64,000 nt of DNA from Candidatus Latescibacterota bacterium (lineage in GTDB: Bacteria > Latescibacterota > UBA2968 > UBA8231). The DNA lies in contig CBDAOB010000001.1 of assembly GCA_965197905.1 (NCBI GenBank), forward strand, positions 64,001 through 128,000, written 5' to 3'. The notes beneath the pieces were generated by a model. The model saw nothing but the letters and a program-made list of their open reading frames with translations. It did no database searches and was not told the origin of the DNA. Shown here piece by piece: positions 50,331 through 64,000 of the stretch (position 1 is the stretch's first letter; each line of letters starts with the position of its first letter). The translations under genes were made by a program, and so were the position numbers.

Positions 50331-51353
50331 CTAAGGTGTTGGAGCATCCTCTCGCAAGAGACCTTCAGACTTCAGCTCCGACCAGAGATCAGCGGGAACG
50401 GCCTGCCGGTAGAGATTCAGATTCTGCTTAACGTGGTCGGGTGCCAGCGCTCCGGGAATAATCGCCGACACGATCGGATGAGCCAGCGGAAACTGCAATG
50501 CTGCTGCTGCCAGGGGGGTCTCGTGACGGGCGCAAACAGCCTCCATCTGGCGGACCTTCTCCTGAACCTCGGCTTCGGCCGGCGCATACTTGTATTTGGC
50601 ACCCTCCACCGGCCCGGTGGCGAGAATGCCTGACGCAAATACGGCTCCGATCACGACGCGGACACCGCGCTCTTCGCATTGGGGGAATTCCGTATCCAAA
50701 ACCTCCTGGTCCAACAAGGTGTACGGCAGCGCTACCAGGAAGAAGTCGAGATCCACCATCTCCAAAAACCGAGGCATCATTCCCATCTCGTTGATGCCGG
50801 CCCCAACTCCCTTGATCAATCCGTCTGCACGCAAACGCTCCAACGCCCGCCAACCGCTGGTGGCCAGCTGATCGAGATACGCCTGCACCTTCTTCTCCGT
50901 CAGGTGAAACCAGAAATCAAGGTCGTGTATGATCAGGTATTCGACCGAAGGCAAACCCAATCGCTGCAAGCTGTCTTTGAACGAACGCATGATGCCGTCG
51001 TAGCTGTAGTCGAACTCCAGGTCGAACGGCAATCCGCCGGCCCAGAAACCCGAGTCGAAGCTGGACGGATCGCGGGTTGGGCGCAGCACCCTGCCCACCT
51101 TGGTCGAGAGCGCGAACTGGGGCCGCTCCTGCTGGCGCAGGAAATGGCCGACCCGGTGTTCACTCTTGCCGTACCCATAAAAAGGGGCGGTATCGAAATA
51201 GCGGATCCCATCGTTCCAGGCCGCTTCTAAAATCTGTTGCGCCGTAGTTTCGCCGATCACTTCGAAGAGATCCCCCAGGGGGACTCCGCCAAGCCCGATT
51301 TCACTTATTGCGGCTCCGGTACGGCCAAGGGGACGGGTTGGTATTGCTGCCAT
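50331..51353 (-). CDS. Aldo/keto reductase (aldose 1-dehydrogenase-like)
   Basis: RYFDTAPFYG.G.SE, STKVGR, FDYSYDG, IHDLD, AALQFPL. Confidence 0.92.
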   Translation of the reverse strand: MAAIPTRPLGRTGAAISEIGLGGVPLGDLFEVIGETTAQQILEAAWNDGIRYFDTAPFYGYGKSEHRVGHFLRQQERPQFALSTKVGRVLRPTRDPSSFDSGFWAGGLPFDLEFDYSYDGIMRSFKDSLQRLGLPSVEYLIIHDLDFWFHLTEKKVQAYLDQLATSGWRALERLRADGLIKGVGAGINEMGMMPRFLEMVDLDFFLVALPYTLLDQEVLDTEFPQCEERGVRVVIGAVFASGILATGPVEGAKYKYAPAEAEVQEKVRQMEAVCARHETPLAAAALQFPLAHPIVSAIIPGALAPDHVKQNLNLYRQAVPADLWSELKSEGLLREDAPTP

Positions 51354-51394
51354 ATCTGATTGTCCTCGTCTGGTTAGCTTTCCGCTGAGGTGCT

Positions 51395-52216
51395 TTAAAC
51401 CCTAGCCCGTTCGAGCAGGTTTCGGAACTCGGTGGCGTACTGGCTCAACACCCCGTCCGCGTCATGATCACTCCCCGGCGGGTGAATGATCTCCACCGAG
51501 AAATACCCGTCAAAGTCGGCGGCACTCAACAGCTGCAGCGGAGCGAAGTGATCGAAAATGCCTTGCCCCAACGGCAGGGTCGTTATCCTTCCATCCACGA
51601 ATGTGCCATCGTGTGCGTGGGTATGGACCACGTACGGCCTCAGCACCTCGAAACTCTCCGCCGGCCGCTCGAATACGCGTTGCGGGTGCATTAAATCCCA
51701 CAGTGCCTGCAGATTGGGATGGTTTGTTTGCTCCAACACCGCGCGCACCGACACCGAGTTACTCCAGTGGTCGTGGGTCTCGAGCAAAATCGTCACCCCG
51801 CGCTCACGCGCCTGATCCAGCACCTGGGCGTATCCCTCGACCATGTAGTCCACCATCACCTTGAGCTCTTTGTCGTGGGTCCAGATACCCCCGAAGGTTC
51901 GCAGCAGGGGACAGTTCAAATCAGCGGCAAGATCGATGTAGCGGCGCAGGTCGTCTACGTGGCCGGCACGCACGGCCTTGTCTTCAGCCGCCATCTGGAC
52001 ACCCGTGGCGATACAACAGAGCTCGAGACCTTCGCCGGCAAACCGAGCTTTAAGTTCCCGCCGTTCCTCCGCTGTGCGCTCCAGCTCAATGCCGCAGGCG
52101 TGATCCCATTCCACCCGGGGTTCGAATCCTCGGTAGCCATGGCGCTTCATGCCGGCGAAAACATCATCAAGCTTCCAGTCTGGACATACGCTGCTCATGG
52201 TCGCCAATTTGATCAT
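51395..52216 (-). CDS. Sugar phosphate isomerase/epimerase (AP endonuclease 2 TIM barrel)
   Basis: LLETHD, LWD..H, HTHAHD, LGQG, SVE. Confidence 0.88.
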   Translation of the reverse strand: MIKLATMSSVCPDWKLDDVFAGMKRHGYRGFEPRVEWDHACGIELERTAEERRELKARFAGEGLELCCIATGVQMAAEDKAVRAGHVDDLRRYIDLAADLNCPLLRTFGGIWTHDKELKVMVDYMVEGYAQVLDQARERGVTILLETHDHWSNSVSVRAVLEQTNHPNLQALWDLMHPQRVFERPAESFEVLRPYVVHTHAHDGTFVDGRITTLPLGQGIFDHFAPLQLLSAADFDGYFSVEIIHPPGSDHDADGVLSQYATEFRNLLERARV

Positions 52217-52346
52217 CGATAGAGCCTCCTCATCGTTTCAATCTGCTCCATCCGCGGGCCTCTTGCAACCGTCTTGCCAGCATTGGATTAGCTTGATTCA
52301 GGTCTTCAATCAGGTATGTTTGGTCACTCGTCAACAGGGGGAAACT

Positions 52347-53162
52347 ATGAAATATCGTTTTGCGGAGATGCTCTGGAAGGAAACCAAAGAAGCAGCTGAG
52401 CAAAATCGAATTGCCGTCGTGCCGGTCGCCACCCACGAAGACCATGGACCCCATCTACCGGTCGATACCGACGTTGTGCTCACCAACGAGATCTGCGAGC
52501 GAGCGGTGGCGCGCATTCCCGGCGAGGCCGTGCTTGTGCCTCCTGTCGTTCACGGTTACAGTCCCCATCACATGGATTTCCACGGCACCCTGACCATCGC
52601 CTGGGATACCTTCATCAAATACGTGAAGGATGTCTGCTGCAGCCTTGCCCACCACGGGTTCCTGCGCATTCTCGTGGTCAACGGGCACGGCAGCAACAGC
52701 TCGCCGCTGGACATGTCGGCGCGGTTGTCCAATCTGGAATACAACGGGGAAATCCTCTGCGCCACCGTCAATCACTGGGACCTACGGCGCGTCAAGGATC
52801 TCGCAGTCGAGCTGCGAGACAGCAGTTACGGTGGCGCCGCGCATGCCGGCGAGTATGAAACCTCCCTCTACCTGGCATTGCGACCGGAGCTCGTAGAGAT
52901 GGACAAGGCAGTGGACGAACGCACCCCACTGCCCCCCAGTTTCCAGATCGATCTTCTCGCCGGCATCCACCCCGAAGGCTCGGGCGCCAAGATGGTTCCG
53001 TACTGGAGCTCGCAGACTGCCAGCGGAGTCCTAGGCGACGCCACCAAGGCATCCGTCGAAAAGGGTGAGAAGTTTCTTGAGGCCGCCACCGAAGGTCTGG
53101 TCGATTTGATTCGCGAGCTGAGGGGCACCGAGATCCCGCCGCGACGCAACCAGCACACCTGA
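52347..53162 (+). CDS. Creatininase-family amidohydrolase
   Basis: EDHGPHLPVDTD, GYSPHHMDFHGT, NGHGSN, HAGEYETS, SGVLGD. Confidence 0.92.
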   Translation: MKYRFAEMLWKETKEAAEQNRIAVVPVATHEDHGPHLPVDTDVVLTNEICERAVARIPGEAVLVPPVVHGYSPHHMDFHGTLTIAWDTFIKYVKDVCCSLAHHGFLRILVVNGHGSNSSPLDMSARLSNLEYNGEILCATVNHWDLRRVKDLAVELRDSSYGGAAHAGEYETSLYLALRPELVEMDKAVDERTPLPPSFQIDLLAGIHPEGSGAKMVPYWSSQTASGVLGDATKASVEKGEKFLEAATEGLVDLIRELRGTEIPPRRNQHT

Positions 53163-53185
53163 ACCTTGGTACACGGCGATTCGAG

Positions 53186-54487
53186 ATGAGGTTTCGATTG
53201 GCTCGTAGAGACGGTGTCCTGGGCGCCATTGTATTGCTCCTCCTGGTACCGCTGTTTCCGGTCGCCATAGAGGCTTCCGGCACCGCCACGACCAGAGCCG
53301 ACAGCCTGTCCCTGGCGCCTGCGAAACCTCTCCGCTATCGCTCCCGCGGTGAGCAGGCGCTCGCCGTACCCGGGCGCATCGTGCATTTCCCGTTTCACCT
53401 GTTGTTCGTTGGCGGCCGCTACAGCGCTCATCTCGTTTGGGAGGTCCGCTTGATCGATCGGTTGAAAGGTTGGCTCACCACGGAGGATGGGCGGATTGGG
53501 ATTCGTCCACTCTCCAACACCGATATCGGATCCGGTTTCCGTCTTTTTTACAAGCGCCTGCCGAGCACAGCAGACGGCGAGCTTACTTCAACCGTTGGCG
53601 CTGCACCGCGCCAGCGCCAACACCACACCGTTGCGCTGGCGTGGGATAAACCTGCTGCCCTTCCGGGGCGCCTGCATTTGGATGCAGGTCTGCGCAAGGA
53701 ACCGAAAGAAAGCTACTTCGGGGTCGGCCAGGAAACTCCAAAGAATGACCGCACGAGTTTCTTTCAGGAAGACCTCCATGCAGGGCTGCGCTGGGAGCAC
53801 CGGATCGATCGTTCGTTGAAAGGCCAGGCCGCCATCGGCTACCACTCTGTAGACATCGGTGCCGGACAGAGCTCCACGGCCCCAGAGATCGGCATTGCCT
53901 ACACTCCCGTTACCTTGCCCGGCCTCGATCAACGGGTGCATTTCATCGAAAGCTCCGTCGGCGTGCACCGCGAGGTCGTCGACGTTCCGGGAAGTCCGAC
54001 CCGTGGCAATCGCACCCGGCTGCTGCTGGCATACCACCGCGCGTTGGACGAAAAATTCTCGCACCTGCGCATCAACGCAGTGAGCGAGCAGTTCGTCGAG
54101 CTCTTCTACCGACGCACCGCATCCTTGCGCCTGGGCATGGATTGGCGCCACGCCCCTGGGGATGATCGAGTCCCGTTCTACAACCTTGCCTACCTGGGCG
54201 GGATCGAGAATCTGCGCGGTTACACAAGGGGCAGATTTCGCGATCGCGGAACCCTGTTTGCTTCTGTCACCTACAAGTACCCGGTATGGCGCCTGGTGGA
54301 CGGTACTCTGTTTTACGAATCCGGGCGCGCCTTCCATGCCCTGGACGAGCTGGAGCTGGGGGGATGGGCGAGCTCGATGGGAGCCGGCTTGCGAGTGTGG
54401 GTACCCGGCGGCCTGGTTTTCGAACAGCTGGTAGCTCGCAGCGAGGAGGAGCTTCGTCTGTTGGTCAATTTCAAAACAATCTTCTAA
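53186..54487 (+). CDS. Omp85/BamA-TamA family outer-membrane beta-barrel without POTRA domains
   Basis: Signal peptide, amphipathic strands, LGGIENLRGYTRGRFRD loop-6 motif, C-terminal Phe (FKTIF). Confidence 0.85.
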   Translation: MRFRLARRDGVLGAIVLLLLVPLFPVAIEASGTATTRADSLSLAPAKPLRYRSRGEQALAVPGRIVHFPFHLLFVGGRYSAHLVWEVRLIDRLKGWLTTEDGRIGIRPLSNTDIGSGFRLFYKRLPSTADGELTSTVGAAPRQRQHHTVALAWDKPAALPGRLHLDAGLRKEPKESYFGVGQETPKNDRTSFFQEDLHAGLRWEHRIDRSLKGQAAIGYHSVDIGAGQSSTAPEIGIAYTPVTLPGLDQRVHFIESSVGVHREVVDVPGSPTRGNRTRLLLAYHRALDEKFSHLRINAVSEQFVELFYRRTASLRLGMDWRHAPGDDRVPFYNLAYLGGIENLRGYTRGRFRDRGTLFASVTYKYPVWRLVDGTLFYESGRAFHALDELELGGWASSMGAGLRVWVPGGLVFEQLVARSEEELRLLVNFKTIF

Positions 54488-54491
54488 GTCT

Positions 54492-56135
54492 ATGTTTGCT
54501 AAATTGATACCGATCCTTGCGATCTGCCTCGGTTGCGGAAGCGCCCTGCCGCCGCCGCCGTCGGCGGCCTTTCCCGATCCCGCCCGCCCACTGGCGAAAC
54601 CAAAACGGCGCAAATCGCGTTTGGTCGTAGAGATCATCGATAAGAGCTTCGACTACCAGATCAGTCAGGTGCTGGATCTTCCGCGCATGGGGAGGAGGTT
54701 GATCGGCCGCCCGTATGAAGCGCTCAACGTGGACGAATTTGATGAGGTGTCCAACTCCGCCTGGTTCACCAACCGCAACGGCGTAGAGCCGCTTTCGCCG
54801 CAAGCCATCAGCCGCGGTCCCAATCGATCGAACGGACCCGACATGTCAGCGCCGTGGAAAGTGGTAGCAATCAAATCCGCTGGCGTGACGCCTGGAATGA
54901 CCATTCTCGACGGCAGGGACGACCGGTATATCATCAAGTTCGACCCGCCCGACTTTCCGCAGCTTGCCAGCGCCGCCGAGGTGGTCGCCGCTCGACTGCT
55001 CCATGCCGCCGGCTACAACGTGCCCGAAAACTACATCACCTACGTGGAGAAACGGCGACTCACGTTGGAGTCGGAGGCGAGGCTTACGGTCACCACCAAC
55101 GATTCGCGACCGCCCATCAGCTCGCGCTCGGTGCGCAGAGTCGATCTGGAGGGGCTCCTCGAACGTGCAGGCAGCGACGGCGGCCCCATACGAGTCCTGG
55201 CCAGTCGCTTTCTCGAAGGCATACCGATCGGTCCGTGGTCCTACACCGGGGTTCGGCGGGACGATCCGAACGACATCTACGCCCATGAGCATCGACGGGA
55301 AATTCGCGGCTTCTACGTCATTGCCTCCTGGCTCAACCACGCCGACATGAAGGAGGAGAACACGCTGGACATGTATGACCCGAAAACAAAGCAAGTAACA
55401 CACTACCTCATCGACTTCGGCGCCTCCATGGGCAGCAACAGCACCCACGCTAGCAATCCGCGACGCGGACAGGCAAACAGCTTGGATGTGAGAGACTCGC
55501 TCACGCGCCTGTTTTCCCTGGGGCTCTACGTTCACAACTACGAGAAGGCTCCCCGAACGGTATTCCACCCCTCGGTCGGATATCTCGACAATCGGCTTTT
55601 CAAAGCCGATCGCTGGAAGCCGATGTACCCGGTGCCGGCCTTCGAGAACATGACCAACCGCGACGCGTTCTGGGGTGCCGCCATCGTGACCTCTTTCTCG
55701 AAGGCTCAGATTGAAGCGGCGGTGGCGGCGGCGGAGTTGTCCGAACCGAAAGCCGCCCAGGGATTGGTAAACTTCCTAGCCGAGCGCCGCGATCGCGTGG
55801 GGGCGTACTGGTTTAGCCGGCTCAACGCGCTGACCAGGTTTCAGATCGAGAATGGAGACCGATTGAGCGGATCGGACCTGGCGGTGACCCGAGGTTATGC
55901 GGCTACGCAGGAGACCCGTTATCGAATCCGCGTCTGGTCCGACGGCCGACAGCTACTCCAACTGGAGAACCTCGAACCGACGTTGACATTGGAGACGAGC
56001 TGGCAGAAGCTGGGTTCGGTGGCCGTCTCGTTTCTGCCGCTCAGGGTGAACCGAGAATCTCCCAAACCAGTATGGGTCTATCTCAATTCTACGGCGGGCA
56101 GGTGGAAATTGGCAGGGTTGCGGCGGTTGGACTAG
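54492..56135 (+). CDS. Exported (possible lipoprotein) atypical protein-kinase-like protein
   Basis: Signal peptide ending LGC; AGVTPG loop, YIIKFD (Lys), AAEVV (Glu), HADMKEEN catalytic loop, YLIDFG. Confidence 0.72.
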   Translation: MFAKLIPILAICLGCGSALPPPPSAAFPDPARPLAKPKRRKSRLVVEIIDKSFDYQISQVLDLPRMGRRLIGRPYEALNVDEFDEVSNSAWFTNRNGVEPLSPQAISRGPNRSNGPDMSAPWKVVAIKSAGVTPGMTILDGRDDRYIIKFDPPDFPQLASAAEVVAARLLHAAGYNVPENYITYVEKRRLTLESEARLTVTTNDSRPPISSRSVRRVDLEGLLERAGSDGGPIRVLASRFLEGIPIGPWSYTGVRRDDPNDIYAHEHRREIRGFYVIASWLNHADMKEENTLDMYDPKTKQVTHYLIDFGASMGSNSTHASNPRRGQANSLDVRDSLTRLFSLGLYVHNYEKAPRTVFHPSVGYLDNRLFKADRWKPMYPVPAFENMTNRDAFWGAAIVTSFSKAQIEAAVAAAELSEPKAAQGLVNFLAERRDRVGAYWFSRLNALTRFQIENGDRLSGSDLAVTRGYAATQETRYRIRVWSDGRQLLQLENLEPTLTLETSWQKLGSVAVSFLPLRVNRESPKPVWVYLNSTAGRWKLAGLRRLD

Positions 56136-56196
56136 CAGCCGGCTGTGAATGCCATGACGCCGAGTTCTTGGAATTCGGTACAAGTCCCTGTGCGTG

Positions 56197-58181
56197 CTAG
56201 ACGGTTTCCTGCAATCCCACCGGCAGAACAACCGTGAAGGTAGTGCCTTCCCCGACCTTGCTTTCCACGTCGATGCGACCTTTGTGATCGGCCATGATCT
56301 GTTGACAGATCGCCAGTCCCAGCCCGGTTCCGGTGGCGGCGCCTTTGGTGGTAAACCCCGACTCGAAGATCCTCGCCAGGCTGTCGGGCTCGATGCCCGA
56401 TCCGGTGTCGCTGATGCTGACGCATGCCTCGCCGTCCCGCAAAAACGTAGCGACGCGAATAGTCCCTTTGCCGTCGATGGCCTGCTGAGCATTGTTGAGG
56501 ATATTCAGGAATACCTGGTTGAGACGACTCGGATAACAAGCGATTGCCGGAAGTTCGGCGTACTCTTTCACGACTTCGATTCTGTTCTTGATGTCATGAT
56601 GCACGAGCATCAGGGTGTCGTTTAGACCGTCGTGAATATCTACCTCGGTCAGGTGATCGTGATCGAGGCGGGCGAAATTTCGAAGACTGCGAACGATCGT
56701 AGTCACTCTGGATGTCCCCGTCTCGATGACCCGATTGCTGTCTTCGATAATCTTCAAAACACCCTGTAACCCCATGTGTTCCTTGCAGTCCTTCGGAAAG
56801 TCCCGCTCGATGGTCGACTTGAGCTTTCCAACTGCTCGCACCAGGGTATCGTGCATGCTATGGATGGCACCGACGGGGGTGTTGATCTCATGAGCGATGC
56901 CGGCCACCAGGTTTCCCAACGCCGCCATCTTTTCGGATTGCAGCAGCTGGGTATGCGCATCGCTGATCTGTTGGAGGTCACCCATGCGGCGAAAACCCTC
57001 CGACAGCACAGCCGCCAGCTCCTTCAGCACCTCCAGCACCTGCTCCGAATAGGCATTCGGCTCGTCGCTGGTCAACCGTAGTGTTCCTTCAGAGAACGGT
57101 ACGTCTACCACGGAACGAACGTCAACGTGGTGCGACTTCTCGAACGGATCCTCCGCCCCAAGGTCGTCCCTGCATGAACACTCCTGCGACTGCCACATCT
57201 TGGTGAGCTCCCCCACCCCCTTCTCCGAGTCCGACACTAGCCATTGACCCTGGCGACTCATACTGCGGGACTTTACCACCGGCGGCTCCACTGTCGTGTC
57301 GATGACGTTGATGCCGCATTCCAGATATTCGATCGCCAGCTGCTCCAACCCCTCCCCGATCGCCGCCAACACATTGGCGATGTCGTCAGCGTCTACCATC
57401 TTCCACACCTCCTCGCGCACGCGTTGCATAACGCCACCGCGCAGTTCGGTGCGTTTGCGCTCGGTAATATCGCGGGCAAACCCCACGTGGCAGAGTACCT
57501 CGCCGTTGTCGTTTTTCACCGGAAAAGCCAGCAGTTCGATATCGATCCACCGCCCCACTTTGGTCTGACTGCGAATCTCACCGCGGAAGCTGCCTTTTTC
57601 CCAGATTTCCTTACCAACCCGCTCGAAGGTCTCTTGATCGGTGTGTAGGGCGGGGGTATGCCCTGCCAGCTCTTCGTCGGTGTAACCCAGCATCTCTCGA
57701 TGCGCCAGGTTCTGCTCGATGTAGTTTCTATTGGCGTCGAGAATCACCACGGCGTCCTGGGTATTGGTGACAATCTCTTTGTAGAGCAGCAAGTTGTCTT
57801 CTAGTTGCTTGCGCTCGGTCACGTCCCGGGCGATGCCTTCATTGCGCACGAACTCGCCATTCTCGAAAATAAGGCGGCGGTTGCCTCGAAGAACTTTACC
57901 TCGCCTCCTTTGGCGAGCATGCGAAACTCGAATCGCCTCACTTCCTGGTCCTGCTTGCTCATGGCCTCTTCGAGGCCCGCTTTCATCTGCGCTTGATCGT
58001 CCGGGTGGATGAATTGGAGCGCGGAGACCCCGATCAGCTCGGCCCGCGAGTATCCGAGGATGTCTTCGGCGGCTTTATTCAGGCTCACAAAGGCGCCCTT
58101 GCCGTCGAGGGCGTAGACGATGTCCGGAACATTCTCCGTCCCCGGCAGGAGCTGTTCGTGCATTTTGCTCATTCGATCCAC
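56197..58181 (-). CDS. PAS-PAS-GAF-like sensor histidine kinase (NtrB type); frameshift at ~57882
   Basis: Two PAS domains; QSEKMAALGNLVAGIAHEINTP, NQVFLNILNNA, DTGSGI, GTGLGL. ORFs 57819-58181 and 56197-57849 join as EANRRLIFENGEFVRNEGIARD. Confidence 0.9.
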
Positions 58182-58660
58182 TATGAAAACGCCTTCAGAA
58201 TCTCCTGCTGAATGCCCTGAAGATCGGAATACGCCTTGTTGATCTCCGAGATCTTCCGCTGCAGCTCCGTCGCCAGCCGGTGTTTCTCAAGACCGTTGCG
58301 GATGATGATCTGCAGCTGGTCGTTGTCCCACGGTTTTTCGATGTACTGGAACAGTCCTATGTCGTTTATCGCTTTGATGGCATTTTCTTTATCGGCGTAT
58401 CCGGTCAGTATGATGCGCGGTATCTGTGGCTTCACCTCTCTCACCTTGGCGAGAAAACTGATTCCGTCCATCTCCGGCATCAGGTAGTCGGAAATCACCA
58501 TGTCGACGCGATTGCCGTTGATGAAGTCGAGCGCCTCGCCTGGAGACAGGAACGTCTTTACCTCGTATTCGGTCTCGAGCATCAAGAAAGAGCTGAGAAT
58601 GGTGAGCACCATCTCTTCATCGTCGACGAGTACTATGGTTTCGTTGCTGCCTTCCAACAT
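58181..58660 (-). CDS. Response regulator receiver plus coiled coil
   Basis: LVDDE, SDYLMP.MDG, ILTGYAD, EKPWD. Confidence 0.92.
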   Translation of the reverse strand: MLEGSNETIVLVDDEEMVLTILSSFLMLETEYEVKTFLSPGEALDFINGNRVDMVISDYLMPEMDGISFLAKVREVKPQIPRIILTGYADKENAIKAINDIGLFQYIEKPWDNDQLQIIIRNGLEKHRLATELQRKISEINKAYSDLQGIQQEILKAFS

Positions 58661-58685
58661 GTATTACTCCTGTCTTACCAGCGTA

Positions 58686-59120
58686 CTAGGAACCGGGGGC
58701 ACCGACTCGGCCCAGCAATCCACGCACGCGATCTACCAACGCCTTGAGAACTCCCTGGGTGATCGCCACGTTGTCGGCAAGCAGGTCGATGAAATCTTCC
58801 TTGTTCAACCGCAGCAGACGCACGTCCTCCAACGGCGTCGCCGCAGTGACTCTGGGCTCGTCGTCAAAGAGCGCCCATGTACCGAACGGCTCCCCGGGAC
58901 CGACCACGTTAATCTCCAGATCAGACCGATGTAATCGCACCTTGCCTTCTAATACGACGAACATGGAGTCAGCTGGATCCTGCTCGCTGAAAATCGCTTG
59001 TCCCTTGGGGTGATCTTCCTCTTCGAGGATCGCTGCGAGGTAGGCCAGTTGTTCCGTCGACACCTCTGAAAAGACATCGACGCTCTGCAGGGAAATTACC
59101 TTTTCAATCGTAGTCAGCAT
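58686..59120 (-). CDS. Stand-alone cyclic-nucleotide-binding domain protein
   Basis: MLTTIEKVISLQSVDVFS, IFSEQD..SMFVVLEGKV, FGTWALFDDEPR; no HTH. Confidence 0.9.
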   Translation of the reverse strand: MLTTIEKVISLQSVDVFSEVSTEQLAYLAAILEEEDHPKGQAIFSEQDPADSMFVVLEGKVRLHRSDLEINVVGPGEPFGTWALFDDEPRVTAATPLEDVRLLRLNKEDFIDLLADNVAITQGVLKALVDRVRGLLGRVGAPGS

Positions 59121-59220
59121 ACGGGGGCATTGTACAGGTTCGCCGTACGAGTGTCAATGATTCCAGAATATACGAGAGCGCGCTTGACGGCGCTCACCGT
59201 CGGTTCGGCCGCTGGGGGAG

Positions 59221-61944
59221 CTAAGCCGAGGTCCGCAGCACCATCTCCGCGGTTTCGCGTACGACCTGGTTGGCATCGTTGCGCGCCAGCCTTACCAGCT
59301 CTTCCTTACCGCTGGCGGCCCCTTCGGTAGTGCTGAACAGCGAACAAGCGCGCAACCACGGATCCCGATTATTTACCAGAAATGCCAGCACTTCCTGCTC
59401 GCCACTCATTCGGGCGTTAAAGGTTCTCTCCCCATGATCGATCGCGGCATCGACTGAAAGTGGATCGAGCAAAGGGATGAGCTGTTCCTTGAGGTGACGA
59501 TCAAGGAGATTGTCGAGGAACTCGATGGCGCTGGCCCGTGTAGACCGGTTGCCGCTGACAAGACCCAGATAGGCGAAGTACATGTCCTGCGCATCGAACT
59601 GCAACCCCAGCAGCCTGAAAATTCGCTCCGTGTTCTGATCCTGTTTCTCCTTCAGCGCGCGCTTGAGCAACTGCAGTGCGTGGCGTCCGTCGCGATCTTC
59701 GTAAAAATGGATCGCCTGTAGTAGGTCGAAATAAGCTCTGAGCGCCCGTTGCAAAAGCTGGTCGATCAACCCCCGATCGAACTCGAGACCATCGCCCCTG
59801 CTACGCAGTTTGCTCAACGATTTAATGAGGGCGAACTGCAACTGAGGTTCCACCTCGTCCAGCATACTCAACAGCAGGTCTACCGATTCCTGTTCGGCCA
59901 CCTGCCCCATGATGCGGGCACCGTTAACGCGATCGCCGTACTCTGCTTCTGCGTCCCTCACAATGGCCGCAACGGGCTCGAGAGCGTCGGACCCGTACTG
60001 GGCGAGAGCGCGCCGCGCCGCCAGTCGGTAGCGCCGGTCTCCCATCTTCTCCAGGAGCAATGGAAGAAAGTGAGGATCGCGCAGTCCACCCATGCTCAGT
60101 ATCATCTCTTCGACGACGGCGGGTTCGGGGTCGTTGAGGAACTGGGTAATGATTTCGTTGAGGTACGGCCGACCGTTTCGCTGCAGACTGGAGACGATCC
60201 TGGCGGCTTGAACCCGTTCGCTCACACCTATGGGTCCCGAAGAGGCGATGTGATGGCGAATCAACTCCTCGTCGACCAGCTGGTTCTCCTCCTCCGTACC
60301 GTATCTAGCGATGCAGCCGATAGCCGCCGACCGCAACAGGCCGTCATCGCTGTTCACTGCATTTTCGAAACACTGCTGCCGTGGTTCCCCTCCATGCACA
60401 CTGAGGTAATGCAACGCCTCGATCCTTACATCCAGTTCGCCATCCTGAGTCAGGGGTCTGACATCCTCGGGTGATATGGCAACCTCTTGACCCAAAAGAA
60501 CCTTCAAGGCCTTTTGTCGCACCACCCCGGAAGAATGTTGCAGCAGTCGGCGCGAAGGTTCCACTAGACGGCGGGCCCTGACCGCGGACAGCATGTCCAG
60601 CGCGTAATCCAGCTGTCGTTCATTCTCGCTTTCCAGGGAGGCAACCAGACTGTCCAGCGCCGCCGCCTCGTTGATATCGACGGTCAGCTCCCCGACGTCG
60701 ATCTCCCGTTTTTCCAGCGCTTGACGGAAGCTGTTCACGTAGGCCCCGCGTCCATGAAAGACCAACGCCATCCACAGCGCGATCAGCGCCAGCGAGAGAA
60801 AGCTGAGATGCTGATACGAAACCCCGAATACGGAAATTGCCAGCAGCACCAGAACCGCACCGAGTCCGGTACAGAGGTTGTCTACAGTCGTATCCAACAG
60901 CACCTTCGTCCGCTGTTTTATCGCCGCCGGAATCGGCAGGAACAGAATCTCCACCGCGGATTTGTGGATCGAGTGCCGAAAACCGCCATCCCCCAGCTTT
61001 ACCAGGATACCGGCCATCAAACCCGGGATTGCCAGCAAGGCAACCGATCCGACTGCGAGACTCACCGGCAGGAACAAAAGCGCGGAAACCACACCGAACT
61101 TGCGCAGGAAACGGGGCGTTACGAACACCTGGAAGAGGAACGCTAGAGCGCTCAGATAGGCGAAGAACTGACCGAAGAACGCGGTCTTGGCATCCTTTGA
61201 GGGAAAAGCACGATCGGCGATGTCGTTGAACTGCACGTCGACGATTGCCGCAACTACGGCGACAAGGGCGGCCATTCCTGCCAGCAACCGCAGGAGATCA
61301 GAACCGCGCACGGTCGCCCAGACATTTTGGGTCGTCGCTTGTTTCTCGCTCGGGGCGGCCGCCTGTCTCGAGCGCACGAAGTAGAGCAGCAGTAAACTCG
61401 CCAGCAGCATGCCAGCGCAGACGATGAGCAGGTTCTCGGTGCCAACCCTGCTGACGATCCAGCTGGTCACCGCACCACCGGCGATGCCGGCAGCGCCGAT
61501 AAACCCGAACAGCCGTCTCGCCTCCCGGGCGTCGAACAGGGCGTTGGCCAAGAGCCAGAGCAGCGATGTCGCCATCAACCCGTAGATGTTTACCCACACG
61601 TAAAAGAGGTAGAAGCTCCACGCCCAGCCACGGGGCAGAACGAGCCAGAAGAGCAACAGGTTGCTCAGGAGAATCAGAAAAACGACCGGAATAATGCGGT
61701 CGAGCCGCGTGCGCTGCGAAAGACCCGCGAAAAGCACTGCAACACCCGCTCCGACGAACGCCACCAGGAGCAGCACGTAAGGCAGCTGCTCGACCCCCAG
61801 CTTATCGAGAAAGAGCGCGTTGCGGACCGGCTTTAGCACGTAGAGGGAAGCCATGACCAGTCCGTACGCCAAGGTCAGCGGCAGGATGCGTGGTAACTCC
61901 TGCCGGCGTAGATCGACGACGCTGCTCAGCAGCCTATGAATCAT
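59221..61944 (-). CDS. NTT/TLC-family (Npt1/Npt2-like) transporter fused to HEAT-like repeats
   Basis: N-terminal multi-TM domain (YVLKPVRNALFL, FDAREARRLFG, EILFLPI) followed by ~500 aa of HEAT-like repeats (DVRIEALHYL, DPWLRAC, VVRETA). Confidence 0.85.
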   Translation of the reverse strand: MIHRLLSSVVDLRRQELPRILPLTLAYGLVMASLYVLKPVRNALFLDKLGVEQLPYVLLLVAFVGAGVAVLFAGLSQRTRLDRIIPVVFLILLSNLLLFWLVLPRGWAWSFYLFYVWVNIYGLMATSLLWLLANALFDAREARRLFGFIGAAGIAGGAVTSWIVSRVGTENLLIVCAGMLLASLLLLYFVRSRQAAAPSEKQATTQNVWATVRGSDLLRLLAGMAALVAVVAAIVDVQFNDIADRAFPSKDAKTAFFGQFFAYLSALAFLFQVFVTPRFLRKFGVVSALLFLPVSLAVGSVALLAIPGLMAGILVKLGDGGFRHSIHKSAVEILFLPIPAAIKQRTKVLLDTTVDNLCTGLGAVLVLLAISVFGVSYQHLSFLSLALIALWMALVFHGRGAYVNSFRQALEKREIDVGELTVDINEAAALDSLVASLESENERQLDYALDMLSAVRARRLVEPSRRLLQHSSGVVRQKALKVLLGQEVAISPEDVRPLTQDGELDVRIEALHYLSVHGGEPRQQCFENAVNSDDGLLRSAAIGCIARYGTEEENQLVDEELIRHHIASSGPIGVSERVQAARIVSSLQRNGRPYLNEIITQFLNDPEPAVVEEMILSMGGLRDPHFLPLLLEKMGDRRYRLAARRALAQYGSDALEPVAAIVRDAEAEYGDRVNGARIMGQVAEQESVDLLLSMLDEVEPQLQFALIKSLSKLRSRGDGLEFDRGLIDQLLQRALRAYFDLLQAIHFYEDRDGRHALQLLKRALKEKQDQNTERIFRLLGLQFDAQDMYFAYLGLVSGNRSTRASAIEFLDNLLDRHLKEQLIPLLDPLSVDAAIDHGERTFNARMSGEQEVLAFLVNNRDPWLRACSLFSTTEGAASGKEELVRLARNDANQVVRETAEMVLRTSA

Positions 61945-61966
61945 GGTTTCTGTCTGGGATTTGTGG

Positions 61967-63370
61967 TCAGCTCGACAGCCCGGTTTCCTTTTCACCGAAG
62001 GACCTGCCCGCGTAGCGGGCGGCGGCGATCCAAACCACCAAGATTACAATGGTCGCCAGCGACAACCAGCGAATCGCCCCGAAGCCGGCAAAGAGGGTGA
62101 CAATCAACAGGTTGACGCCCACTGCCAGCGCCTTGGCGAAACGTTGTACGAACATGTCGATGAACGCCTTCGCTTTGTATTTCTCGTCGCGGGTAGTGGG
62201 AACGTACAATACCTCCTTGGCCGATTGGTTGATGGAATAGCTCAAGCCGTTGTCGGAGGTGTTTAGCAAGCTTCCGATCAGCAGAACCGGGGCGATGAGA
62301 AACCCCGCGGAGCCCAGCAGAGCCGCGACGGGCAGGAAGAGCAACGCGGTACCGACGCCAAAGCGAGTCATTACAAAACTGGTAAGCAGCAGCTGGACGA
62401 TCAGCGCCACCATGTTTGTGAAGGAGAAGACCCGCGGAAAGTGCTCGCCGATGGCGGCGCCTTCGAGGTGGTGGACCACTGCCGAAGTGAACTGGAAGTC
62501 CATGATCGTGGAAACCATCTCGTAGAGACCCACGATAGCCACGATCGACAACAGGTACTTCGAACGGAAGACCAGTCGGGCGCCTTCGAAAGCCGCATTC
62601 CCTTGCGGTTTCTCTTCCGACTTTGCCTCCACTTCCGCTTCCGGCGGTGGATTCTTGGCGACCACGCGGCCAGCGGCCATGGCTATGAGCGCGATGGCCA
62701 GAGCAATGCCGAGACAGACCCACATCCACAGAGAGGGACTCGAAGCCTTCACGTAGATACCGACCACCGAGCTCCCGAAGAATCCGCCAAGGACCCCGCC
62801 GAGCCCAATCAGTCCATACAACCTCTTGGCGGCGGCCGGCGCAACGCTGTCGTTGAGGAAGGCGAAGAAGCTCGCCACCATCAGGGTGCTGAACAGGTCG
62901 CCGAAGAGATAGAACGACCAGATAGTGAATGCACCGGGACTGTTCAGCAGGAAGCTGTACACCGCATACGCCAGCACGAAAAAAATGCTCAACGCATATG
63001 TAAGCTGCTGGCGACGCAGGGACCGGGCGAGGATCGTGAATATGGTCGCGGCGGCGAACGCCACCGCCATGTTCAACACCTTGGCAATCTGCTCTGCGCC
63101 TGGACCGTCGAGAACCCACCCAAACAGATCAAACGGAGTCGAGCTGTAGAACTCGAGGAAGGAGGTTTTCTTGATCGGTTTGAGAATCCAGAAGGTGGTG
63201 ATGACCAAAAAGAAATAGAGGAACATTAGCAGGGCTTGAGCCCGTTCTTCTGGGCGGAACCCTTTGATCTGTCGTCCGACGAGAACCAGAAAGATGAGCA
63301 CCAGCGGCCATTGGAGAGCCGCCACATAAGACATGAAGCTCTCAAAGAAAGCAAAACCTACCGATTCCAA
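61967..63370 (-). CDS. NTT/TLC-family ATP/ADP translocase-like transporter
   Basis: WILKPIKK, AKRLYGLIG, YSINQSAKEVLYVPT..KYKAKAFIDMFVQRFAK. Confidence 0.87.
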   Translation of the reverse strand: MESVGFAFFESFMSYVAALQWPLVLIFLVLVGRQIKGFRPEERAQALLMFLYFFLVITTFWILKPIKKTSFLEFYSSTPFDLFGWVLDGPGAEQIAKVLNMAVAFAAATIFTILARSLRRQQLTYALSIFFVLAYAVYSFLLNSPGAFTIWSFYLFGDLFSTLMVASFFAFLNDSVAPAAAKRLYGLIGLGGVLGGFFGSSVVGIYVKASSPSLWMWVCLGIALAIALIAMAAGRVVAKNPPPEAEVEAKSEEKPQGNAAFEGARLVFRSKYLLSIVAIVGLYEMVSTIMDFQFTSAVVHHLEGAAIGEHFPRVFSFTNMVALIVQLLLTSFVMTRFGVGTALLFLPVAALLGSAGFLIAPVLLIGSLLNTSDNGLSYSINQSAKEVLYVPTTRDEKYKAKAFIDMFVQRFAKALAVGVNLLIVTLFAGFGAIRWLSLATIVILVVWIAAARYAGRSFGEKETGLSS

Positions 63371-63380
63371 TGTGTCCCCC

Positions 63381-64000
63381 TTATTCCTGACGCCCGATAC
63401 CGGCTATCCGGAGCACTCCGGCACCGTCGGCATAGACATAAACGCGCGTGTATTTACTCCACCTTCCCGAGTTCTGACGCTGGGTGCGGATCTCGAAGCC
63501 GCGCACGACCATCGGTTTCAGCTCCAGATCCACCCTCCAGCGAGGTGACTCAGAGAGCTTGTCCACTCCGACGCGCCTGCCCCCGGCGTCGATGGCATGG
63601 TAGCGATAGCTAGCGGAGGAGGTCAACCCTCCCGCAACTGCCAGATCCGCGAAGCGCAGCTCGCCATCGACCACGACGAAACGATCCAACGGATTTACGC
63701 GTGCGAACCAGTATTTGCCAATCATGTCGCGGCGCTCCACCAACAATCGGGTGAGCTCGGCGGCGGCCCGCGGATCGGAATACTGGCCCATGGCCACCAT
63801 CGCTGCAATCTCCTCCTCGTTGAAGTTCATGAGGATTTTCGCTCCCCAATAGCCGTCGCGGTTGGTGCAGCGCTCGAAGGCCGGGTTGGGATAGGTAGGC
63901 ACCCAGCTGGCAGCGTCGAAGGTTTCGTTCTCGAAGTAACCCAGCTCGGGGTATTTCATGGGCAGCGGCTCTTCCCAGGGTTTGCGGTAGAACCCGAGAG
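63381..64000 (-). CDS. C-terminal part of a paralog of the kinase-like protein at 54492 (5' end outside the window)
   Basis: LGFYRKPW..PELGY..WVPTYPNPAFERCTNRDGYWGAKI..LVERRDMIGKYWFARVNPLDRF aligns by eye with LGLYVHNY..PSVGY..WKPMYPVPAFENMTNRDAFWGAAI..LAERRDRVGAYWFSRLNALTRF. The frame is open to the window edge. Confidence 0.85.
   Translation of the reverse strand, partial: LGFYRKPWEEPLPMKYPELGYFENETFDAASWVPTYPNPAFERCTNRDGYWGAKILMNFNEEEIAAMVAMGQYSDPRAAAELTRLLVERRDMIGKYWFARVNPLDRFVVVDGELRFADLAVAGGLTSSASYRYHAIDAGGRRVGVDKLSESPRWRVDLELKPMVVRGFEIRTQRQNSGRWSKYTRVYVYADGAGVLRIAGIGRQE

Follow-up and report, generated by a model that had tools for sequence, protein, structure and literature searches.

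A gene set of Omp85 barrel, exported kinase-like protein and ATP/ADP-carrier homologues suggests periplasmic phosphorylation in bacteria

The stretch of DNA analysed here, referred to as the window, comprises 64,000 nucleotides of Candidatus Latescibacterota bacterium (GCA_965197905.1, contig CBDAOB010000001.1, positions 64,001-128,000; G000:C1:64001-128000 in our numbering). Its last part carries a gene set in which an Omp85-family barrel, an exported protein with a kinase-like fold (KL) and homologues of NTT/TLC-type ATP/ADP carriers are neighbours. This gene set recurs in many phyla and suggests, without proving it, that ATP drives phosphorylation in the periplasm. The textbook view is that the periplasm lacks ATP and that processes at the outer membrane borrow energy from the inner membrane through TonB, Lpt bridges and similar devices. 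A gene set that joins ATP/ADP-carrier homologues to an enzyme with a kinase site, predicted to dock on a barrel, makes the question of periplasmic ATP directly testable.

Gene arrangement at the locus

Genes were called from a listing of open reading frames (ORFs) together with Pfam and NCBIfam scans, and the region past the window end was examined as C1:125000-143000 (L001). On the plus strand, Omp85-1 (53186-54487) encodes an Omp85-family barrel of 433 aa without POTRA domains (PF01103, 42.8 bits against a cut-off of 24) and ends 4 bp before the start of KL1 (54492-56135), which encodes an exported protein of 547 aa with a kinase-like fold. A set of minus-strand genes converges on this pair. 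It begins with KL2, a paralog of KL1 whose C-terminal 205 aa lie in the window (63381-64000) and whose gene continues to the window equivalent of position 65078. It goes on with NTT (61967-63370), a single-domain TLC/NTT protein of 467 aa (PF03219, 67.1 bits against a cut-off of 21), and with NTT-HEAT (59221-61944/61995; MFS_1 and HEAT_2), for which the ATG at 61944 is the likely start. Then come a gene for a cyclic nucleotide monophosphate (cNMP)-binding protein (58686-59120; 144 aa, PF00027, 70 bits), a stand-alone receiver (58181-58660; 159 aa, PF00072, 89.5 bits) and, as the last gene of the set, a PAS sensor histidine kinase (56197-57849; PAS_4, HisKA, HATPase_c).

A first-pass annotation of the window, made from the letters alone, had listed these genes with a spacing of 4 bp between the barrel and KL1, 10 bp between KL2 and NTT and 22 bp between the two carriers, and had called KL2 a paralog of KL1. 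All of the genes were found where it had placed them. The 10 bp gap holds with a TTG start of NTT at 63370 and the 22 bp gap with the ATG at 61944, and the two KL proteins are 39% identical over 459 aa (E 1e-109). The catalytic half of KL2, which the annotation had put outside the window, is indeed present beyond position 64000, where the gene is complete with a likely start at Met68 of the longest frame. There it is adjoined by a second Omp85 gene (~65075-66466 in window-equivalent numbering; PF01103, 51.6 bits against a cut-off of 24), with a gap of zero between the two if Met68 is the start. By tblastn this genome has only two copies of KL, each adjoining an Omp85 gene. Because KL2 also has its own adjoining Omp85, the Omp85-KL pair is a repeated two-gene cassette, of which one copy heads the run of NTT, NTT-HEAT, cNMP-binding, receiver and histidine kinase genes. 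The clustering of genes at this locus is far beyond chance and recurs in other genomes.

The kinase-like protein and its predicted barrel partner

KL1 belongs to no Pfam or NCBIfam family and KL2 likewise to no Pfam family. The sole Pfam signal of KL1 was HipA_C (PF07804), which reached 17.9 bits over residues 130-188 only, below the gathering threshold of 30.5 for membership of the HipA/CtkA family; KL2 gave no match. The likeness to Fam20 is structural only, no Pfam match of KL to the Fam20 model PF06702 being found at E <=0.01, and the Fam20 neighbour given by a protein language model is weak (0.80). A sequence search of PDB chains with KL returned 0 matches at E up to 10. Relatives of KL are abundant, amounting to 2517 proteins at E <=0.001 among 8000 scored candidates; 120 relatives among the matches listed had no Pfam domain and were named only 'hypothetical protein'. 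With a profile of 36 KL members, 4126 clusters at 50% identity were reached, 1466 of them at E <=1e-30. In a protein atlas the nearest clusters, most commonly from Myxococcota, were called 'hypothetical protein' or 'Lipoprotein family protein' and shared no common Pfam family, and the nearest clusters with an informative name were Fam20C, HipA and PI4K, at 0.79-0.80. To judge by these searches, KL is a large and unnamed family.

The AlphaFold2 (AF2) model of KL1, built on the KL alignment, reached a pLDDT of 91.3 and a pTM of 0.91 and has the two lobes of a protein-kinase-like (PKL) fold. Its residues ~108-448 match only kinases by VIA, with CtkA (3akj) in front at Z 14.0 and a root-mean-square deviation of 3.7 over 227 residues. 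Fam20 structures followed at Z 12.7 (Hydra), 12.6 and 11.4, CotH (5jda) at 12.2, PI4KII-alpha at 12.1, HipA at 10.8, actin-fragmin kinase at 10.7 and MavQ at 10.4. The top Foldseek rows were all kinases too, but weak, the best having an E of 1.3e-3. The C-terminal residues ~445-536 of the model form an FN3-like sandwich (Z about 8-9).

KL1 has the catalytic residues of a PKL enzyme in the expected sequence, as K149, H283-x-D285-xxxx-N290 and D308-F-G. Their roles as strand-3 lysine, HxDxxxxN loop and DFG aspartate were assigned by order and spacing, without residue-level superposition. Conservation was counted over those 241 of the 268 stored KL relatives that are 480-660 aa long. K149 and D308 are each kept in 237 of them, D285 in 236 and N290 in 234, and other motif positions are kept somewhat less often (E/D163 in 230, F309 in 222, G310 in 207 and H283 in 192). 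The ordered kinase motifs that the first-pass annotation had picked out in KL1 are thus invariant or nearly so, a residue pattern that fits an active enzyme better than a pseudokinase.

Export of KL is a family trait, as far as a simple signal-peptide rule can tell. By this rule, a hydrophobic, signal-like N-terminus is present in 224 of the 241 relatives; in 175 of these a Cys comes shortly afterwards, as in lipoproteins, in 49 there is none, and the remaining 17 of the 241 mostly look truncated or mis-started. KL1 itself has a lipoprotein-type signal with Cys15 and is probably a lipoprotein; KL2 has a signal without Cys. Two of four longer KL relatives (P0269 and P0272) carry PF01103 and are Omp85-KL fusions, and the relative P0233 has a PAP2 phosphatase fused to its C-terminus. 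In characterised bacterial PAP2 enzymes the active site faces the periplasm.

In the AF2 model of Omp85-1 (pLDDT 84.3), a signal peptide and a disordered segment (24-52) are followed by helices at 54-85 and 89-97 and by 16 strands over residues 104-429, and the L6 loop between strands 11 and 12 carries LRGY...RGRFRD. A 16-strand barrel with PF01103 above threshold places the protein in the Omp85 superfamily. The nearest solved folds are the barrels of TamA and BamA (E 2.5e-12 to 1e-10), and the protein falls outside BamA/TamA membership, the BamA equivalog TIGR03303 scoring 27 bits against a cut-off of 297. Neither a POTRA domain in the Pfam scan nor such a fold in the model was found in Omp85-1, as its first description as a POTRA-less Omp85 would have it.

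We folded barrel residues 31-433 together with KL residues 16-547, using for the barrel an alignment from 27 of ~72 partners picked for sensible starts. The complex of Omp85-1 and KL1 gave ipSAE values of 0.71, 0.69 and 0.72 against 0.08 for the best control, and the runs agreed in at least 81% of contacts with a partner pLDDT of at least 86. In calibration, 116 of 157 solved complexes attained the mark for this score, as against 2 of 215 mismatched pairs, which is an approximate guide here, our own alignments having been used. The barrel residues in contact with KL in the model are 44-86, 307-310 and 363-375, that is, the N-terminal segment (a low-confidence disordered part, 44-52, and the first helix, 54-85) and the turns of strands 10-11 and 12-13. 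On the side of KL the predicted contacts are residues 43-78, 253-267 and 330-352. Because the barrel elements are periplasmic in the Omp85 topology, KL is placed under the barrel, on its periplasmic face. As a prediction, the model supports binding of KL to the barrel. It also separates two roles that had been offered for the Omp85 from the start: a scaffold or periplasmic-face partner is favoured, and a translocator to the surface is less so. Display of KL on the surface through the barrel is not favoured, since all predicted contacts lie on periplasmic elements.

A divergent KL subfamily aligns with the profile only from position 73-79 (in G501, G587, G591, G523, G521, G621 and others) and therefore lacks the N-terminal part that would contact the barrel helix according to the complex model. 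Some genomes have it alongside another KL; in others it is the sole KL, and no NTT was found in these.

Recurrence of the gene set and co-occurrence with the carriers

The single-domain NTT exceeds the model threshold of the NTT/TLC family (PF03219, TC 2.A.12), matches plastid NTT1 (PDB 9j3j) with an E of 6.6e-14 and retains the KE..Y.P...K.K.K..ID stretch. NTT-HEAT itself misses PF03219, which its L006 and L009 orthologues reach with 27.7 and 53 bits, but it is homologous to NTT (33% identity over 140 aa, E 6e-17). HEAT_2 scores 61.1 bits in NTT-HEAT, and the cNMP-binding gene begins 100 bp downstream. The locus thus has the architecture of NTT-HEAT with an adjacent cyclic nucleotide-binding domain (cNBD) gene that the first-pass annotation had called one of unclear function. 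Free-living bacteria have been described as carrying NTT and NTT-HEAT genes of unknown function, with a cNBD gene alongside (Major, Embley and Williams 2017, PMC5381601). The histidine kinase, with HisKA and HATPase_c, and the receiver, which has no output domain, make up a two-component pair. A third NTT-family gene in the genome, an NTT-HEAT-cNBD fusion, lies on contig 5 (L082:9244-12417, equal to G000:C5:2362243-2365416), away from KL and Omp85; among its neighbours, checked for exported ATP-using enzymes, only signalling genes (PAS-HisKA, HDOD) and metabolic genes were found.

A scan of one genome per species yielded 571 KL relatives. The counts of loci given here refer to the best 80 of them, in which neighbours were located by tblastn with the window proteins. 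A same-strand Omp85 gene lies directly upstream of KL in 72 of the 74 loci with at least 1.2 kb of upstream sequence, mostly at gaps of -11 to +20 bp. An NTT-family gene is found within 10 kb of KL in 33/80 loci, and in 27/80 (68 of the 80 having at least 2.5 kb downstream) it is on the same strand and no more than 2.6 kb downstream. By record title, these 27 loci come from Latescibacterota, Zixiibacteriota, Ignavibacteria, Cytophagia, Rhodothermales, Balneolaceae, KSB1, Krumholzibacteriia, Eisenbacteria and several groups of Acidobacteriota; titles of KL loci also include Gemmatimonadota and Myxococcota (Kofleriaceae, L065), and relatives in Bryobacterales and Solibacter are likewise indicated by title. 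Pfam annotation of 41 ORFs, hand-picked in 10 NTT-bearing loci, shows a recurrent order of Omp85, KL, in some cases a metallophosphoesterase, NTT, NTT-HEAT, cNMP-binding protein, receiver and often a histidine kinase. The cNMP-binding gene adjoins NTT-HEAT in 16/80 loci. The receiver follows the cNMP-binding gene in L006, L009, L010, L046 and L068 and directly follows NTT-HEAT in L003, and in other phyla, too, a histidine kinase comes after the NTT-HEAT, cNMP and receiver genes.

Phosphatase genes are part of this neighbourhood. Metallophosphoesterase genes occur in 16/80 loci and PAP2 genes in 5/80, and all six metallophosphoesterases used as queries start with what looks like a signal or a lipobox. 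The likeness of the metallophosphoesterases to cyclic-nucleotide phosphodiesterases is weak (20-25 bits, far below cut-off), and we therefore assign no subtype.

Co-occurrence of KL and NTT was counted in whole genomes of three samples. KL was searched by profile. NTT was searched with the window NTT protein in the own phylum and, in the other two samples, with a profile (A3) of 13 NTT domains, which was used over PF03219 because PF03219 missed an NTT-HEAT of G168 that tblastn had seen; overlaps were counted by hand from the search tables. Among the 168 genomes of the own phylum, 41 have KL and 60 have NTT, the latter being present in 37/41 KL-positive versus 23/127 KL-negative genomes. Of the four KL-positive genomes without NTT, two are fragmentary and two have a KL fragment only. 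Close orthologues of the single-domain NTT (E <=2.3e-74) are present in 21 of these 168 genomes, all 21 of them KL-positive, and are adjacent to KL in at least 14. Acidobacteriota (n=301) have KL in 54 and NTT in 132 genomes, with NTT in 49/54 KL-positive versus 83/247 KL-negative genomes, a count that includes the unpublished genome G220 (48/53 without it). For the class of G170 (n=201) the figures are 21 and 26, with NTT in 19/21 KL-positive versus 7/180 KL-negative genomes, and the two misses have only a divergent KL, aligned from profile position 78-79. That the same pattern should arise by chance in three groups is hard to believe.

Several observations concern the surroundings of the cassette. 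In two loci of Latescibacterota the barrel side departs from the usual order. L041:8763-9889 has a DDE transposase in two ORFs at the usual place of Omp85, and no Omp85 was detected upstream of KL there; in L057:11547-16635 a PlpD-like patatin-Omp85 fusion and another protein with an Omp85 domain come after KL, giving three Omp85-type genes in a row. In the genome under study, an RND efflux set (L001:5464-12814, equal to G000:C1:130463-137813) immediately precedes the second Omp85 gene. It comprises AcrB-type and HlyD-type genes, an OEP gene fused to an ABC-type substrate-binding domain (SBP) and a Yip1 gene, and the AcrB-type gene shares its last 4 bp with the Omp85 gene. In other genomes close orthologues neighbour the cassette too: L011 and L043 have AcrB at 60-76% identity, and L006, L043 and L066 have the OEP-SBP fusion. 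Just 5' of Omp85-1, at 50331-53162, are genes for an aldo/keto reductase, a xylose-isomerase-like TIM-barrel protein and a creatininase-family hydrolase; the latter two have weak sub-cut-off matches to the inositol-catabolism models IolO and IolN and look unrelated to the cassette. A scan of 52900-64000 for promoters and terminators stayed at chance level (4 promoter-like sites versus 3.0 expected, 12 terminator-like versus 10.1). None of the 16 runs listed for the stretch was of RNA. One sigma-70-like site at 59129-59157 on the minus strand (TTGACA, 17-nt spacer, TACAAT; 11/12 matches) falls within the 100 bp that separate NTT-HEAT from the cNMP-binding gene and could serve the regulatory genes as an internal promoter.

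A possible supply of ATP to the periplasm

We see roughly an even chance that the NTTs exchange ATP for ADP and thereby feed KL, as a periplasmic phosphotransferase, within a conserved envelope module. This reading rests on the observed order of the genes and the families they belong to, on the modelled fold with its conserved residues, on the export signals and on the synteny and co-occurrence, and from these we infer the substrate and direction of the carriers, the activity and target of KL and the roles of the regulatory genes. The core of the module would be an Omp85 barrel without POTRA and an exported KL, usually a lipoprotein, with KL residing in the periplasm, docked on the periplasmic turns and the N-terminal helix of the barrel. 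Because its kinase active site is complete, KL would need a nucleoside triphosphate beyond the inner membrane. The adjacent NTT-type carriers would supply it by moving cytoplasmic ATP out and ADP, perhaps with phosphate, in; characterised carriers of this type are antiporters in every case. Control of this costly flux may fall to the HEAT domain in the cytoplasm, together with the cNMP-binding protein, receiver and histidine kinase. KL would phosphorylate a target in the envelope, possibly a lipid or protein of the outer membrane. The link to PAP2 and the likeness of the fold to PI4KII and MavQ hint that it is a lipid, but a protein would be an equally good candidate. The exported metallophosphoesterases and PAP2 phosphatases of the clusters in other genomes could reverse the mark, and a reversible mark is suggested because exported phosphatases cluster with KL and a KL-PAP2 fusion exists. 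We infer purely by reasoning that the NTTs carry adenine nucleotides, that net flux of ATP is outward and that KL proteins phosphorylate anything. An outward carrier would fit a gap in mechanism, as the route of ATP from the cytosol to the periplasm is, according to a review, unclear in E. coli, which has no ATP/ADP translocase (PMC7432876).

The first-pass annotation had proposed a pathway of this kind, in which NTTs export ATP to fuel periplasmic or surface kinases, and had named the checks by which to judge it. Those that are computational all turned out favourably: the three families co-occur and are syntenic across phyla, the modelled KL has a kinase fold with conserved catalytic residues, and export signals are present in most of its relatives. 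Its interpretation as a whole is partly supported.

A number of points weigh against such a supply of ATP. Periplasmic ATP would be expected to leak through porins. By sequence KL belongs to no kinase family, given the sub-cut-off HipA_C signal, the lack of any PDB match and the Foldseek values. The carriers are distant from the solved ATP/ADP carriers (E 6.6e-14) and stay far below the cut-off of 387 of the NCBIfam model TIGR00769 (73.8 bits for NTT and 34.8 bits for NTT-HEAT); their substrate could differ from ATP/ADP. No NTT lies within 10 kb of KL in 47/80 loci, and among 46 hand-picked ORFs from 20 of these NTT-less loci no substitute transporter family emerged, the downstream genes being variable. 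No NTT was found in 11 of the 116 KL-positive genomes (4/41, 5/54 and 2/21), some of which are fragmentary or have a divergent KL. Conversely, the carriers must have a role independent of KL, because NTT-family genes are frequent in KL-negative genomes of all three samples and the contig-5 copy stands away from KL. The co-occurrence counts moreover overstate independence, because kin share genes. One KL relative, P0263, sits behind a cytoplasmic-type glycosyltransferase (GT4), an odd fusion because it is ill-suited to an exported enzyme, and one that may be an artefact of gene calling. Finally, characterised NTTs serve import, in parasites and plastids (PMC5381601).

This last point is also the starting point of a rival explanation in which nucleotides travel the other way. 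Here Omp85-KL would take hold of nucleotides from outside at the outer membrane or let them in, the exported phosphoesterases would cut down nucleic acids or cyclic nucleotides, and the NTTs would import the nucleotides, as in parasites; all characterised NTTs act in uptake (PMC5381601). The metallophosphoesterases of 16/80 loci, with their weak likeness to cyclic-nucleotide phosphodiesterases, would find a place in such a scheme, and the mutual co-occurrence of KL and NTT fits a pair of uptake devices in the outer and inner membrane equally well; because it predicts the same co-occurrence, inward scavenging stays a live rival. We hold it to be unlikely, however, since neither binding nor gating explains the near-invariant Lys, Asp, Asn and Asp of KL, and the complex model puts KL on the periplasmic face rather than the surface. 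Omp85 barrels are not known as uptake channels for small solutes, and a kinase would still need a phosphate donor outside the cytoplasm.

A somewhat different rival keeps the chemistry of the Omp85-KL pair independent of the NTTs, the carriers being linked to it by shared regulation or by moving its product or another metabolite. The 47 loci and 11 genomes without a nearby or detected NTT speak for it, as does the wide occurrence of the NTT-HEAT/cNMP unit without KL (see also PMC5381601); the substrates of the NTTs are, besides, putative. Against it stand the same-strand NTT genes directly downstream of KL in 27/80 loci of many phyla, the confinement of close single-domain NTT orthologues to KL-positive genomes (21/21) and the mutual pattern in the class of G170, where 19/26 NTT-positive genomes have KL and 19/21 KL-positive genomes have NTT. 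Every known enzyme of the KL fold, furthermore, uses a nucleoside triphosphate. On balance we regard this self-contained arrangement as unlikely. Very improbable indeed, in our view, is that KL is a non-catalytic, BamD-like accessory of the barrel that merely kept a kinase shape, the unit serving as an assembly or secretion device. Such a role would suit the tight pairing with the barrel and the predicted docking, and Omp85 proteins commonly partner periplasmic lipoproteins, as in BamA-BamD; but pseudokinases typically lose the catalytic motif residues that are kept here in 234-237 of 241 relatives, and the linkage to NTTs and phosphatases would be left unexplained.

Returning to a periplasmic kinase fed by the NTTs, we tentatively extend it, with slightly less than even confidence, to a regulated periplasmic ATP economy in many free-living diderms, with Latescibacterota, Zixiibacteriota, Ignavibacteria, Rhodothermales, KSB1, Gemmatimonadota, Acidobacteriota and Myxococcota among them. 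KL may there reversibly mark outer-membrane lipids or proteins or energise the barrel, and the periplasm would be a bacterial counterpart, by analogy, of the lumen of endoplasmic reticulum (ER) and Golgi with its ATP carrier and Fam20 kinases. If true, phosphorylation outside the cytoplasm would add a new layer of envelope regulation, KL with its roughly 4,100 clusters at 50% identity would stand as a new kinase family, and it would become clearer what the puzzling NTT and NTT-HEAT genes do in free-living bacteria (PMC5381601).

No published description of the Omp85-KL-NTT gene set was found in our literature search, which saw its sources in part. Close to it are the NTT units in PMC5381601, which share with the present locus the NTT domain, the HEAT repeats and the cNBD gene (there within a few bases on the downstream side); the fusion of all three domains occurs in this genome as well. 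Unlike that account, whose consulted passages mention neither an Omp85 nor an exported kinase and which nowhere contains the word 'periplasm', we find the unit tied to the Omp85-KL cassette by synteny and co-occurrence. The pairing itself is reminiscent of BamA-BamD and TamA-TamB, in that the barrel is nearest to TamA and BamA and a lipoprotein is predicted at its periplasmic face. It differs in that an N-terminal helix replaces the POTRA domains in Omp85-1 and the partner has a kinase fold, in contrast to the TPR fold of BamD or the AsmA-like TamB.

Among kinases, KL is most like Helicobacter pylori CtkA and the HipA-like atypical Ser/Thr kinases, CtkA being its best fold match and HipA_C its sole Pfam signal. 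CtkA is, moreover, a secreted kinase. In contrast to these proteins, KL also has a helical segment at its N-terminus, the conserved stretch RxDDxND...HxHRRExRG and the FN3-like domain, its partner is an Omp85 barrel rather than an antitoxin, and its HipA_C score stays below cut-off. The CotH spore-coat kinases of Bacillus are another example of an atypical kinase acting outside the cytoplasm, with a fold matched by KL (5jda). However, KL has no sequence match to CotH, whose site of action is the mother cell or spore coat of monoderms, in a system without carrier or barrel partner. A further comparison is with the eukaryotic secretory pathway, where the kinases Fam20C and Fam20B are supplied by the ER/Golgi ATP/ADP exchanger SLC35B1/AXER. 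In both cases an enzyme with a kinase fold outside the cytosol is paired with an antiporter, ATP entering its compartment and ADP or AMP leaving it, as is proposed here from genes and models, and all three Fam20 structures are among the fold matches of KL. KL is set apart by the lack of a PF06702 match, by a carrier of the NTT/TLC rather than the SLC35 family, by its place in the periplasm and, according to the complex model, by its docking on an Omp85 barrel.

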